From contig CAVUWV010000018.1 of NCBI GenBank assembly GCA_963745075.1, forward strand, positions 160,001 to 224,000: a stretch of 64,000 nt of DNA, read 5' to 3'. The stretch comes from Candidatus Hydrogenedentota bacterium (GTDB lineage Bacteria; Hydrogenedentota; Hydrogenedentia; Hydrogenedentales; SLHB01). The first letter of the stretch is position 1; the number at the start of each line of letters is the position of its first letter. This document shows, in pieces, positions 53,931-62,727 of this stretch. Made by a program: the position numbers and the translations under genes. The notes under the pieces are model-generated. The model was not told where the DNA came from. It did not search any database and was given only the letters and a program-made list of their open reading frames with translations.

Positions 53931-55628
53931 ATGAAAACTCGCAGTGTGCTTGTCTACTGCCCAGGTTATCCTATTGATATTAATTCGCTTATACCAAATC
54001 GATTCCTTGCCGAAGCGGCAGGATGCCTCCTCGATGCGGGCCACACCACTCGGATTTGGGACTACGGAACGGTAGCGACTGCCGAGCGGCTCCTAGAAGG
54101 GAAGCTCAGCGACTTGGCCCGCGCGGTTGGAGAGTCGATACTTGCTGACACGGGGCTCAACCCGTTACGAACGCTACATACGCTTTGGCAGATCCGCGCC
54201 TCCGACAAACTGTTTTCACAGAGGCTTACGCGTCTGTGTCAGGAGGTCGCGGATGAATTGGCACATATGCGAGGCCTCCACTTCGTCGGCCTCTTGCTCC
54301 GCTCTGTTGAGGACATGCGCTACGCTGCGCAGATCGCGCAGATGGTCCGTACGAACCGGCGCAAGCTCCGCATTGTAGCGTTCGGTCCGTTAGTGGATCT
54401 CTATGGCACGTCGGTTCTTCGGGGCTACCCGGCGTTCGACTGCATCTGCCTTCGCGGCATCGAGTTAAGTCTTGTAGGGCTTGCCGAAAAGATCGACACG
54501 CCGCGGTTATGGTCAACAATACCGAACATTTTGTTTCGTGACAGCTCTCGGATCCGGGAAACGGAACGCCGGGATAGTCTCAGTCTTGGAAGCCACCCGT
54601 CGCCCGCCTACGAGCCCGATACGTACCCGGCGCTGCGCGCCGAACAGAAACTCAAGCTGTTTGAACTCGAAGACAACCGGGGCAAGCGCGGTGAGGGATA
54701 CGGACATCCCGACTTGGAGCCGGAAGTTGCGGTTCGCATGAAGCCGGTCACGGCGGTGGTCAACGAAATGTGGAAGGTTGCGACGTTGTACGGCGCCCGG
54801 GCATTCAGTCTGTGCGGTTCGGCGGCGTCGGCGTCTCACATGACGGCAGTAGCCCACGAATTGCTGCGACGGAGAATGGACGTAATCTATTCGCGAAGCA
54901 GTGCTGTCCAGGGCGATGTCCCGGCGATGTTCGGCATCTTGAAGGCTTCGGGGTGCGCGTCAATGTCGTTTATTGTAGACACCGGTAGCCAACGACTCCT
55001 GGAAGATTACTATGGTCGTGCGGTGACGGTCTCCGAGGTGGAATCGATTCTCAGAGCGTGTAAAGCGTCGGGGATCTATACGATTGCGCGCTTTACCTAT
55101 CCTTGCCCTGCGGATGACTACCATACACGGGCGGAAACGGTCCGGCTCGTGGAGCGGACGCGTCCCCATGCGGCGTCGGTGGAGTTTCCCCAAGTCGTTC
55201 CGCAATCGCGGTGGTTCCGGGACGGCGCGGCATTTGGGTATCGCTTTCGGCCGGAACGTGTCCTGTCGGACGCGACAGACTGCGTACGGCGATTTCCTCT
55301 ACCGCCCAATACCTGGAGCCGCCTCCCGGTAGGCATGGACGGCCTGAGCCCGAGCCAGGCGGTCGCGGCACACGACGAATTGGTGGCGGAGTTCGAGAGC
55401 CGGGGTATCCTTGCCTCCGCACCGGCCAATCTGGTCCAGTTGGCGCGGCTGGCGGGTTACGCGAAGCGTGAGCGCGAATTTGTGTCCCGCGTTTACGAGG
55501 AGTTTCTGACCGGAGATGCAGCGGGGATCGCCACCTTGGTCGATCAGTTCAACGAGATAGCTTGTGTACCGGCTAAGGGTGTAGCATTACATCCATTCGA
55601 CTCGTCGCGCGTCGCGGTAGGGAATTAG
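53931..55628 (+). CDS. B12-binding/radical-SAM-fold protein lacking the CxxxCxxC motif
   Basis: B12-like N-domain, LKASGC..M.F.VDTGSQRLL, F.YPCP.D; NRGKRGEGYGHP where the Cys triad is expected. AAGGAG RBS. Confidence 0.75.
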   Translation: MKTRSVLVYCPGYPIDINSLIPNRFLAEAAGCLLDAGHTTRIWDYGTVATAERLLEGKLSDLARAVGESILADTGLNPLRTLHTLWQIRASDKLFSQRLTRLCQEVADELAHMRGLHFVGLLLRSVEDMRYAAQIAQMVRTNRRKLRIVAFGPLVDLYGTSVLRGYPAFDCICLRGIELSLVGLAEKIDTPRLWSTIPNILFRDSSRIRETERRDSLSLGSHPSPAYEPDTYPALRAEQKLKLFELEDNRGKRGEGYGHPDLEPEVAVRMKPVTAVVNEMWKVATLYGARAFSLCGSAASASHMTAVAHELLRRRMDVIYSRSSAVQGDVPAMFGILKASGCASMSFIVDTGSQRLLEDYYGRAVTVSEVESILRACKASGIYTIARFTYPCPADDYHTRAETVRLVERTRPHAASVEFPQVVPQSRWFRDGAAFGYRFRPERVLSDATDCVRRFPLPPNTWSRLPVGMDGLSPSQAVAAHDELVAEFESRGILASAPANLVQLARLAGYAKREREFVSRVYEEFLTGDAAGIATLVDQFNEIACVPAKGVALHPFDSSRVAVGN

Positions 55629-56876
55629 ATGATGCATTCACGATCGGTTGTAGTCACCGGATTCGGGATACTTGCGTGCAACGGACTTGGGCGCGAAGCC
55701 TTCTGGAATGCCCTGAAAGAAGGGCGGTCGGGGATTCGCCGCATCGAACGTTTCGATCCGACGCCGTTTCCCTGCCAGATCGCCGGTGAACTCTGGGGTT
55801 TCGACGCCGCCGACTATCTTTCGAAAGCGGACGTCAAACGCTGGCATCGATACGTACATCAAGCCGTCGCCAGCGCCAAGCTCGCGGCTGAAGACGGGGG
55901 CCTTGCGGATGCCGGCTACGATCCGGAGCGCGTTGCCGTTGGTTTTGGAACGAGCGCGGGCGCACCGGACGAGTATTACATGAAGTACCGTACGTCCTTC
56001 GAAGAGGGCGGCTGGAGCAACATCGACAAGCTTGCGTCGTCGACGTCTTCGGGCCACGCGGCGACCGCCAATGTGTCGGCCACGCTACACGCGCGCGGTC
56101 CCGCGACGACGATCGCCAGTGGTTGCGCCACGGGGCTTGACGTCATCGCGTGGGGCGCCAATCAGATTCGCCGTGGGCTTGCCGACGCGGCCATCTGCGG
56201 CGCGTCGGAAGCGCCCCTCACGGAACTGACGTTGGGCGCGACCTGTTCCCTGGGGATTCTCTCCAAACGTAACGATGAACCGACCAAGGCGATGCGCCCC
56301 TTCGACCGCGACAGCGACGGTATTGTGCTGAGCGAGGGGGCCGGCGCGGTAATCCTCGAGAGCGCGGAGAACGCGGTGGCGCGGGGTGCGCGCATTTATG
56401 CGGAACTTTGCGGGTACGGAACGGCGGCGGAAGGGCAAAACGCACTGATTCTGGATAAGGAGGGCAAGGCCCTGGCGCGGGCGATCACCATGGCATTGCG
56501 GGAAGGGGGACTCGCCCCGGAAGATGTTGACGGAGCGGCCTGTCACGGCGTATCGCTCCCGGCATACGATCGCAGCGAGACCAGCGCCTATAAAGAGGCA
56601 TTGGGACAACACGCGTACCGAATCCCCATCACGGCGTGCAAATCCATGACGGGGCAACCGTATTCGGCGGGGGGGATTCTGAACGTCGGCGCCGCACTAT
56701 TTGCGTTGTGCACCGGGATCGTGCCGCCGACGATCAATCTGGACGAACCCGATCCGGCCTGCGACCTCGATTTTGTACCTAAACAAGCGCGGTATAATGA
56801 CGTTAGAGTAATCCTCGTTACTGCGATGAGTTTTGGAGGCACCCACGGGGCGCTTGTAATGCGAAAGAGTAGCTGA
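55629..56876 (+). CDS. FabF-like beta-ketoacyl synthase with atypical active site
   Basis: VVVTGFG, SGCATG (Cys), RPFD.D.DG.V.SEG, CHGVS (His), KSMTGQ (His->Gln), PPTINL, SFGGTH. Confidence 0.9.
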   Translation: MMHSRSVVVTGFGILACNGLGREAFWNALKEGRSGIRRIERFDPTPFPCQIAGELWGFDAADYLSKADVKRWHRYVHQAVASAKLAAEDGGLADAGYDPERVAVGFGTSAGAPDEYYMKYRTSFEEGGWSNIDKLASSTSSGHAATANVSATLHARGPATTIASGCATGLDVIAWGANQIRRGLADAAICGASEAPLTELTLGATCSLGILSKRNDEPTKAMRPFDRDSDGIVLSEGAGAVILESAENAVARGARIYAELCGYGTAAEGQNALILDKEGKALARAITMALREGGLAPEDVDGAACHGVSLPAYDRSETSAYKEALGQHAYRIPITACKSMTGQPYSAGGILNVGAALFALCTGIVPPTINLDEPDPACDLDFVPKQARYNDVRVILVTAMSFGGTHGALVMRKSS

Positions 56877-61351: not shown

Positions 61352-62727
61352 TGAAAACCATTCTATGTGTTGACGACGAATTGAGCGTACGGGAAGCCTA
61401 CCGCCTTATCCTGGCCGACCATTATCGTGTGTTGCTGGCGCCGGACGGCCCCGCTGCGCTGACCATGCTGAAAGAGAATCATGTCGACCTCGTATTGCTC
61501 GACATGATTATGCCGAACATGGACGGGATGGAAGTGCTCGATGAAATCGTCCGGTCGGACGGTGTCGTGCCCGTTATCGTGGTGACCGCGATCAAATCGG
61601 TAACGACCGCCGTGAAAGCAATCAAGCACGGCGCCAAAGAGTACATCATCAAACCATTCGACGTGGACGAAATCCTGCTGATGGCGGAGAAGACGCTTAC
61701 CGCCAATCAGAAGGACCATGAATTGTCCATGCGGCGCAAGGCGGATGCCTCGGGCTTCGACGCGATCGTCGGTAGCAGCCCCGCACTGAAGCAGACGTTG
61801 GCATTGGCCACCCGCGCGGCGCAAGTCGATTCCACGGTGCTCATCACCGGCGAGAGCGGCACCGGAAAAGACCTGATCGCCCGGGCCATCCACAGCGGGG
61901 GACTTCGGAGCAAGAATCCCTTTGTGGCGGTGTCGTGCTGCGCGATTCCGGAGCAGCTCGTCGAAAGCGAACTGTTCGGTCACGAAAAAGGATCGTTTAC
62001 CGGGGCGAGCGAAAAACGCGTCGGCAAGATGCAGGTCGCCGATCGCGGCACACTGTTCCTCGACGAAATCGGCGAAATGCCACTCGAGGCGCAGGCGAAA
62101 CTGCTGCGGGTATTGCAAGGGGGGCAATTCTATCCCGTCGGCAGCACGAAGGTAATCGAGGTGGACATTCGCTTCATCTGCGCGACTAATCGCGACCTGC
62201 GCGTGGCGGTGAAACAAGGCATCTTCCGTGAGGACCTGTTCTATCGTGTCAACGTGCTACACGTGGAAATGCCGCCCTTGCGCAACCGGCGCGAGGATAT
62301 TCCGTCGTTGGTTAACCATTTTGTGGCGAAACACCGCGTACGGGTCAACGCGCAGGTGAAGCGGGTCGCGCCAGACGCGATGGCCACGTTGACCGCCTAC
62401 GACTGGCCCGGCAACATTCGCGAACTCGAGAATATGGTCGAGCGCATCCTTGTCATGAATCACCATGTGGAAGAGTTGCGCGCGAACAATCTCACCGGGA
62501 TCATCCCCGTGTCGGCGGGCGGGTCCTCCTCGGATTCCGTCGACCTTGAAGGGCTTCCGTTGGACGAAGCGACACGCCGGGTGGAACGACGGCTTATCTT
62601 GCGCGCCCTGGAACAGAGCGACAACGTCCAGTCCCGCGCGGCGGAGTTGCTGGGCACCACCCGCCGGATTCTCAAATACAAGATGGACCAGCTCGGCATC
62701 GAATCCGTCGAGCGCGAAGTGGGGTAG
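61351..62727 (+). CDS. Sigma54-dependent response regulator (NtrC/AtoC family)
   Basis: REC (LLDMIMP), [40 protein letters not shown], Fis-type HTH. Confidence 0.95.

Follow-up and report, generated by a model that had tools for sequence, protein, structure and literature searches.

Among described systems, the closest in layout to the operon analyzed here is phcBSRQ of Ralstonia, in which, according to the source passages (PMC8578825), an enzyme for a fatty-acid-derived signal, a membrane histidine kinase and a soluble receiver-kinase protein are encoded together. The operon analyzed here comes from Candidatus Hydrogenedentota and occupies positions 53931–62727 of a 64,000-nucleotide stretch of DNA (the window). 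It consists of five consecutive plus-strand genes, for a radical S-adenosylmethionine (SAM)-like protein, a FabF-like ketosynthase that we call KSQ, a kinase with a HisKA_7TM domain (HK1), a pseudokinase (HK2) and a sigma-54-dependent activator, and it has the same three kinds of component as phcBSRQ. A methyltransferase is a further shared element, found here in fuller KSQ clusters of other phyla. In contrast to phcBSRQ as described, there is no PhcB or LysR output, and the corresponding parts are a FabF-like enzyme, a HisKA_7TM-GAF receptor and a sigma-54 activator. The likeness is one of layout, judged from descriptions of the proteins.

In FabF (KAS II) enzymes, both histidines of a Cys-His-His triad take part in condensation, and two threonines (T305 and T307 of EcFabF) anchor pantetheine and are needed for activity, as set out in the relevant passages of PMC9006962. 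KSQ shares with these enzymes the fold, the Cys, the first His, the Lys and the gate Phe, but differs in having a Gln and in the loss of both threonines. FabF paralogues with an altered triad also stand beside B12 radical SAM genes in the anammox ladderane clusters, according to the accessible parts of PMC2649909, PMC4790861 and bioRxiv 10.64898/2026.05.19.726425. Unlike KSQ, however, the altered ladderane FabFs lack the Cys, and PMC2649909 mentions neither 'histidine kinase' nor 'sigma'; identity with a ladderane cluster was rejected on residues and gene content. A preliminary description of the locus had offered the PpyS and DarB ketosynthases and the PrsK/PrsR pair as precedents. Neither DarB nor PrsK/PrsR is matched at family level: the StlD/DarB model NF005293 gave 25 bits where 450 is required, the PrsK model TIGR02916 gave 116 against 300 and the PrsR model TIGR02915 gave 382 against 503. 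In the literature searched, mostly outside subscription journals and without supplements, we found no account of the cassette or of an operon of this kind with NrdR boxes, and no Cys-His-Gln FabF was described among the matches listed. The operon is real and conserved and is read here as a variant of synthase–kinase signalling; by score or residues, its proteins fall outside FabF, DarB, PrsK/PrsR and the radical SAM enzymes.

Open reading frame (ORF) checks, domain scans and fold matches agreed with the five genes, their junctions and the protein identities given in the preliminary description. The radical SAM-like and KSQ frames abut (55628/55629), KSQ and HK1 overlap (TGA/ATG at 56876), HK1 and HK2 are 3 nt apart (59387–59389), and HK2 overlaps the activator gene (TAG/GTG at 61351). 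Two further features, absent from that description, are promoter boxes at 53755–53830 and a conserved pfkB gene downstream. RpoN is encoded in the host genome. The interpretation that we favour, with confidence that is evenly balanced, is that the operon specifies a synthase–receptor circuit for an acyl-derived small signal, rewired to deoxyribonucleotide (dNTP) status through NrdR. It had been suggested earlier that the locus is either a lipid-signal circuit or a set of enzymes repurposed as sensors; the fuller clusters found elsewhere support a synthase and its receptor, while the choice between synthase and sensor is not decided by them.

KSQ and its linkage to the HisKA_7TM kinase

The predicted model of KSQ has the FabF fold (TM-score 0.95–0.96 and 34–40% identity to PDB entries 8qer, 1e5m and 1j3n). 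The second His of the FabF triad is Gln343, and the threonine positions are occupied by Val308 and Leu310, leaving neither the Cys-His-His triad nor the two anchoring residues of FabF/KAS II. Among 100 aligned close homologues, out of 120 listed, Cys166, His306, Lys338, Gln343 and Phe402 do not vary, and Thr occurs at neither 308 nor 310, where the residues are Val, Ala or Ile and Leu, Ile or Met, respectively. In the set of KSQ proteins found by pattern, the Cys is present in 91/91 and the first His in 88/91. KSQ scored 360 bits against the FabF model TIGR03150, which has a cut-off of 494. The His-His FabFs fell on one side of a branch with an SH-aLRT support of 97, with KSQ set apart, in a quick tree made without bootstrap, like that of the radical SAM proteins below.

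Because the Cys is invariant while the second His and both threonines are replaced, KSQ has likely kept acyl acceptance and lost normal extension. The earlier statement that three of the five proteins have lost catalytic residues stands in that three deviate, but the ketosynthase is altered only in part, with Cys166, His306, Lys338 and Phe402 retained. In FabH-type enzymes the corresponding residue is Asn and condensation still takes place, so that Gln alone is no proof that KSQ is inactive. In the circuit that we propose, KSQ would take an acyl chain from housekeeping acyl carrier protein (ACP) or coenzyme A (CoA) onto Cys166 and, because the second His and both threonines are gone, would transfer it to some acceptor that is not malonyl-ACP; the product would then bind the 7TM domain of HK1. 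As previously noted, no ACP is encoded near the operon: there is none in the window, and the PF00550 matches of the genome lie elsewhere. One of them adjoins a canonical FabF on contig C20, a housekeeping FabF and ACP locus separate from the operon. The nearest relatives of KSQ include FabF-like proteins fused to PilZ, REC, PocR or PocR-GGDEF (P0242, P0266, P0293, P0287, P0298, P0299, P0301 and P0314). These are ketosynthases with built-in signal input, a pattern that is as expected for regulated enzymes.

A profile search with KSQ returned distant Gln-type clusters. Scanning for the KSQ motif gave 33 genome stretches, of which 30 hold a true ketosynthase of this kind (L075, L091 and L092 do not), labelled as Thermodesulfobacteriota, Nitrospirota, Rokubacteria/Methylomirabilota, Elusimicrobiota, Planctomycetota, Bacillota, Gemmatimonadota, Armatimonadota, Omnitrophota, Verrucomicrobiota and Nitrospinota. 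The motif also occurred in 104 metagenome stretches and in 6/201 and 31/201 genomes of two phyla. With non-KSQ pattern matches from the metagenome and phylum scans dropped, there were 113 distinct loci, and the 46 with at least 7 kb downstream (long loci) were used for counts. A 7TM kinase was scored in 44 of these 46, and L068, one of the two misses, has one as well, making 45/46; in 28 the kinase gene directly follows that of KSQ. The other genes are less constant, with radical SAM genes in 16 long loci, ICMT in 11, an activator in 16 and a short sigma-54 paralogue in 7. The pair of KSQ and HisKA_7TM kinase is a near-constant core across about ten phyla. HisKA_7TM is little treated in the literature searched, with no ligand named in the passages of one paper on it, and the cassette is a candidate source of one; it also suggests that uncultured phyla living in sludge, sediment and groundwater use lipid signals, and KSQ hints at a reaction or a role not yet described for the FabF fold.

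Around this core, two layouts were seen. In the fuller one, the order is activator, KSQ, B12 radical SAM proteins (one to four), ICMT and 7TM kinase; in the kinase-only one, it is KSQ, 7TM kinase (one or more), pseudokinase and hybrid kinase. Some loci carry an ACP with a His-His ketosynthase, an outer-membrane barrel or stand-alone 7TM genes; an ACP was seen in three, L068, L080 and L206. The CxxxCxxC motif is kept in 52/55 radical SAM genes of KSQ loci. A sigma-54 site with a score of at least 12.5 precedes KSQ in 18/22 tailoring-type loci with KSQ first, versus 3/41 kinase-only loci, and an activator gene lies no more than two genes upstream in 23/25 fuller loci. The scoring consensus was taken from general knowledge, and shuffled sequences reach a score of 13 in 0.5% of cases. 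With a sigma-54 site before KSQ and an activator gene close by, the fuller layout resembles an autoinduction loop, and in these clusters the proposed circuit would close in this way.

Some fuller clusters also contain short sigma-54 paralogues of 333–419 aa that match the DNA-binding domain only and immediately precede the activator (L064:5315-6385, L070:12663-13787, L071:6451-7449, L081:5096-6352 and L085:5322-6386). The anammox genome Ca. Anammoxibacter (L069/L241) has a KSQ cluster with a CxxxxCxxC radical SAM protein, apart from its other FabF paralogues.

The enzymes could instead modify membrane lipids, by methylation or acyl transfer, with the kinases sensing the state of the membrane and no diffusible signal involved. 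The best family matches of the intact radical SAM proteins include hopanoid and lipid enzymes, every one of them below cut-off, fuller clusters have an ICMT/PEMT-type methyltransferase, and NrdR-type boxes stand before genes for the envelope and for division in the host as well (see below). However, the housekeeping FabF–ACP locus is separate, the tailoring gene set differs freely between closely related KSQ loci, and the window operon retains no tailoring enzyme with intact catalytic motifs. We consider this explanation improbable.

NrdR-type boxes over the operon promoter

No sigma-54 site precedes the operon in the window, and none was found at a score of 13 in 36 Hydrogenedentota regions upstream of it; sigma-54 autoregulation was not found in this lineage. 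A palindrome found de novo from the upstream regions occurred at 80 sites in 33 regions, with 3.3 expected. The box rule for NrdR, given in the source passages of PMC13584703, is C4, A6, A8, T9, T11 and G13, with helical-phase spacing between boxes. By this rule, and leaving out three near-duplicate regions, there are 123 strict boxes in 53 upstream regions, compared with 4.7 in shuffles, and 49 of the 53 have two or more. The boxes are spaced by 30–32 (21 pairs), 41–42 (9), 60–62 (18) or 91–93 nt (12). The host genome as a whole has 958 strict boxes but only 8 pairs at such spacings, and 90 regions before other KSQ genes have only 9 boxes.

In the window, strict cores at 53758 and 53818 are 60 apart, with a variant core at 53787 between them, and the boxes overlap a sigma-70-like element formed by TTGCAT (53784) and TATAAT (53807), separated by 17 nt. 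Such an element, likewise overlapping boxes, occurs in 30/36 upstream regions versus 1.5 in shuffles; a consensus scan did not list the copy in the window. An NrdJ-like reductase of the host is preceded by a pair of boxes 31 bp apart, one of them with one mismatch; nrdR itself has an NrdR-type box upstream, whereas none was found in the upstream region of the class III reductase. The nrdR gene is present in 126/135 genomes of the phylum. Two or more consensus boxes in helical phase over a promoter coincide here with a genome that encodes the repressor.

NrdR is described as a repressor of reductase genes in the available sections of PMC13584703, and those promoters follow the same box rule and spacing; here the predicted target is instead an operon for signalling, which carries two to four boxes. 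Transcription of the operon is predicted to be gated by NrdR. In the favoured circuit, the sigma-70-type promoter of Hydrogenedentota would be repressed by dATP-loaded NrdR, tying the supply of the circuit to DNA-precursor status, and NrdR would have taken the place of autoinduction. Twenty genes next to top-scoring box sites of the host encode, among others, a Mur ligase, FtsK, a penicillin-binding protein (PBP), an amidase, an M23 peptidase, a Clp ATPase and a flagellar rod protein; no family was assigned to six of the twenty, and others are unrelated. The NrdR regulon is possibly wider than the reductase genes in this host. If so, the conserved boxes upstream of a two-component operon, together with single boxes ahead of murC-like, ftsK, PBP and amidase genes, would extend the role of NrdR to cell-cycle regulation. 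Box sites at C18:116405, C12:227229, C17:50981, C19:82022, C20:160002, C21:27398 and C10:362476 lie near Mur ligase, ftsK, PBP, amidase, M23 peptidase and flagellar rod genes and nrdR.

More tentatively, and with less than even confidence, the Cys-His-Gln ketosynthases and orphan HisKA_7TM kinases may form a multi-phylum signalling family with a lipid signal chemistry of its own; in Hydrogenedentota this family would have lost its sigma-54 autoinduction loop and come under NrdR, whereby dNTP pools would time a phosphorelay together with genes for cell division. In the boldest version of this idea, the ketosynthase itself would be a covalent acyl sensor for the kinase.

The boxes might, on the other hand, act on the radical SAM-like gene and pfkB alone, for nucleotide metabolism, with the ketosynthase and kinase genes riding along. 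The radical SAM-like gene has a match in 118/135 genomes of the phylum, the weakest few possibly being ordinary radical SAM genes, versus 79 for the ketosynthase, 87 for HK1 and 83 for HK2, and the boxes persist in lineages with this gene alone, beside pfkB or thioredoxin. The coupled gene junctions and the presence of the radical SAM orthologue in KSQ clusters of other phyla make such a division very improbable. A B12-carrier role for a class II reductase was not supported either: in a search that covered the NrdJ-like type, a match (E 1e-60) was found in 27/135 genomes, none of them in families f11 and f13.

Conservation within Hydrogenedentota

The full five-gene order was found in 23/40 loci of relatives. 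Another eight start with the radical SAM-like and ketosynthase genes (seven end at a contig edge and one has no adjacent activator), and the ketosynthase is missing in nine; pfkB is a conserved downstream neighbour. For unsaturated pairs, the ratio of nonsynonymous to synonymous substitution (dN/dS) was 0.08–0.17 for the radical SAM-like gene, 0.03–0.045 for the ketosynthase, 0.025–0.04 for HK1, 0.02–0.05 for HK2 and 0.02 for the activator gene; in pairs that include window genes, which are saturated, it stays below 0.14. The preliminary description had asked whether the gene order and the substitutions are conserved and whether the altered genes show relaxed selection. The order is largely kept, the altered residues do not vary (the Gln of HK2 in 26/26 rows, besides those of KSQ above), and all five genes are under purifying selection. 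The operon is therefore not decaying, and we rejected a decaying cluster or chance juxtaposition as scarcely credible, even though the radical SAM-like gene evolves faster (59–64% identity within the genus, versus 76–85% for the ketosynthase) and has lost its motif several times. Pseudo-enzymes arise repeatedly in this family and yet stay under selection.

The 7TM part of HK1 has no other close match in the host genome. In the proposed circuit, HK1 would phosphorylate the activator, which would in turn drive sigma-54 genes. HK2 is a histidine pseudokinase, with no phospho-accepting His in its H box: QE[IV]KN is found in 26/27 rows, the last row being truncated. In its orthologues, this site is occupied by Asp where the locus is of Rokubacteria type and by His where it is of Nitrospinota type, so that the phospho-His was probably lost at least twice. 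ExxN, the phosphatase motif of HisKA proteins according to the source passages of PMC12963549, is kept, and the dimerization and histidine phosphotransfer (DHp) docking helix resembles that of HK1. From these features we infer that HK2 is a phosphatase or modulator for an activator shared with HK1; unable to autophosphorylate, it would drain or tune the activator phosphate. DivL and PsmA, as described in the same passages, likewise have a kinase fold without phospho-His, but ExxN is missing in PsmA, and HK2 differs from both in its N-terminal receiver and in the position of its gene beside an intact paralogue.

The model of the radical SAM-like protein (pLDDT 90.7) gave TsrM as its best Foldseek match (E 7.7e-19, TM 0.63), followed by MgmA, AprD4 and OxsB, and its Atlas neighbours are B12 radical SAM clusters. 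It shares the B12-binding domain and barrel with cobalamin radical SAM enzymes such as TsrM, MgmA, OxsB and TokK, but the cluster motif CxxxCxxC is missing and the domain-scan match is weak. The motif is kept in only 9/57 Hydrogenedentota rows (48/57 are without it), whereas all three Cys are present in 16/16 orthologues from outside the phylum. Assuming an ancestral CxxxCxxC, the tree implies a minimum of three losses on branches with good support or, as drawn, some six; the change count printed with the tree is one too high, as the L069 and L172 rows, labelled 'lost', keep three Cys with one extra residue. The SAM-site residues remain conserved. Families f11 (23 genomes) and f13 (10 genomes) have no ketosynthase, HK1 or HK2 match, but have 17 and 10 matches, respectively, to the radical SAM-like protein, its gene standing beside pfkB or thioredoxin. 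As it persists where the other four genes are missing, the protein has a role of its own, which is probably non-radical, and in the favoured circuit it would be kept here for that role without radical chemistry. Kept alone in these two families and missing from most long loci (present in 16/46), it is not an obligate part of the cascade. Two f11 loci, L295:4241-7001 and L299:5125-7553, have the lone gene divergent from RNase HI, with thioredoxin following in L295.

Several observations weigh against the synthase–receptor circuit. Tailoring enzymes and ACP are missing from the majority of KSQ loci, and KSQ may make no product, given the roles of the His and Thr residues in the passages of PMC9006962. 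The loci were chosen by the Gln motif, and kinship among them inflates the apparent independence of the counts. The sigma-54 autoinduction site is absent from Hydrogenedentota and rare in kinase-only loci elsewhere, and the NrdR boxes accompany the radical SAM-like gene even where the ketosynthase and kinases are lost. With 28 activator-like matches and 75 candidate sigma-54 sites in the genome, the targets of the activator are not assignable. Finally, HK1 is kept while the ketosynthase is deleted in place in genomes G018, G031 and G104.

KSQ could instead be a co-receptor, acylated by or binding acyl-ACP, a lipid from outside or an inhibitor directed at FabF, that switches HK1 by direct contact. 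The frequent position of KSQ directly before the 7TM kinase, the gene overlap in the window and the retention of the acyl-accepting Cys with loss of the extension residues would agree with this, and the scarcity of tailoring enzymes and ACP fits equally well. In addition, in no well-covered Hydrogenedentota locus was an intact KSQ seen without HK1; in G075, where the kinases are deleted, only a ketosynthase stub (L304:3100-3723) is left between the radical SAM-like gene and pfkB. Yet HK1 persists without KSQ in the three genomes just named, KSQ heads enzyme-rich, sigma-54-driven operons in fuller clusters, the 7TM domain points to a ligand in the membrane or from outside, and no ketosynthase–kinase fusion was found among 61 longer matches, although this last is weak evidence. 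We regard the co-receptor as less likely than the synthase–receptor circuit. The survival of HK1 without KSQ, together with the lack of KSQ without HK1, fits both a synthase and a co-receptor. For the synthase–receptor circuit, enzyme and receptor genes that are linked and jointly conserved are what we observed.

Features of the locus and neighbouring genes

Coordinates of the operon, its promoter and the downstream gene in the window
Feature	Position	Strand	Remarks
Promoter with NrdR-type boxes	53755..53830	+	strict cores, variant core and sigma-70-like element
Radical SAM-like protein, 565 aa	53931..55628	+	B12-binding radical SAM fold without CxxxCxxC; ribosome-binding-site-like AAGGAG at 53920
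KSQ, FabF-like ketosynthase, 415 aa	55629..56876	+	Cys166-His306-Gln343; pantetheine-anchoring Thr both replaced (HGVSL)
HK1, HisKA_7TM-GAF-PAS-HisKA-HATPase kinase, 836 aa	56876..59386	+	intact H, N and G boxes; His607
HK2, soluble REC-GAF-PAS-HisKA-HATPase pseudokinase, 653 aa	59390..61351	+	Gln425 at phospho-His; ATP-binding boxes kept
Sigma-54-dependent activator, REC-AAA+-Fis, 458 aa	61351..62727	+	receiver Asp and Walker motifs intact; GSFTGA loop
PfkB-family kinase, usual downstream neighbour	62869..63764	+	frameshift near 63100 splits gene in assembly

The frameshift in pfkB lies near a G/A run at about 63090 and, with the gene intact in relatives, is possibly an assembly error; an intact relative matches PDB entry 3kd6 (E 2.8e-100). 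In genome G024, the activator gene is split and degenerate (L029:3654-4936) behind intact kinases. A gene for a PilT-like ATPase (52263–53363, minus strand) is divergent from the operon. A glycosyltransferase gene lies further upstream (49128–50465, plus strand); in two relatives of the same genus it is found between pilT and the radical SAM-like gene. At 48155–48460 there is a ParE-family toxin gene of the type II toxin–antitoxin type.

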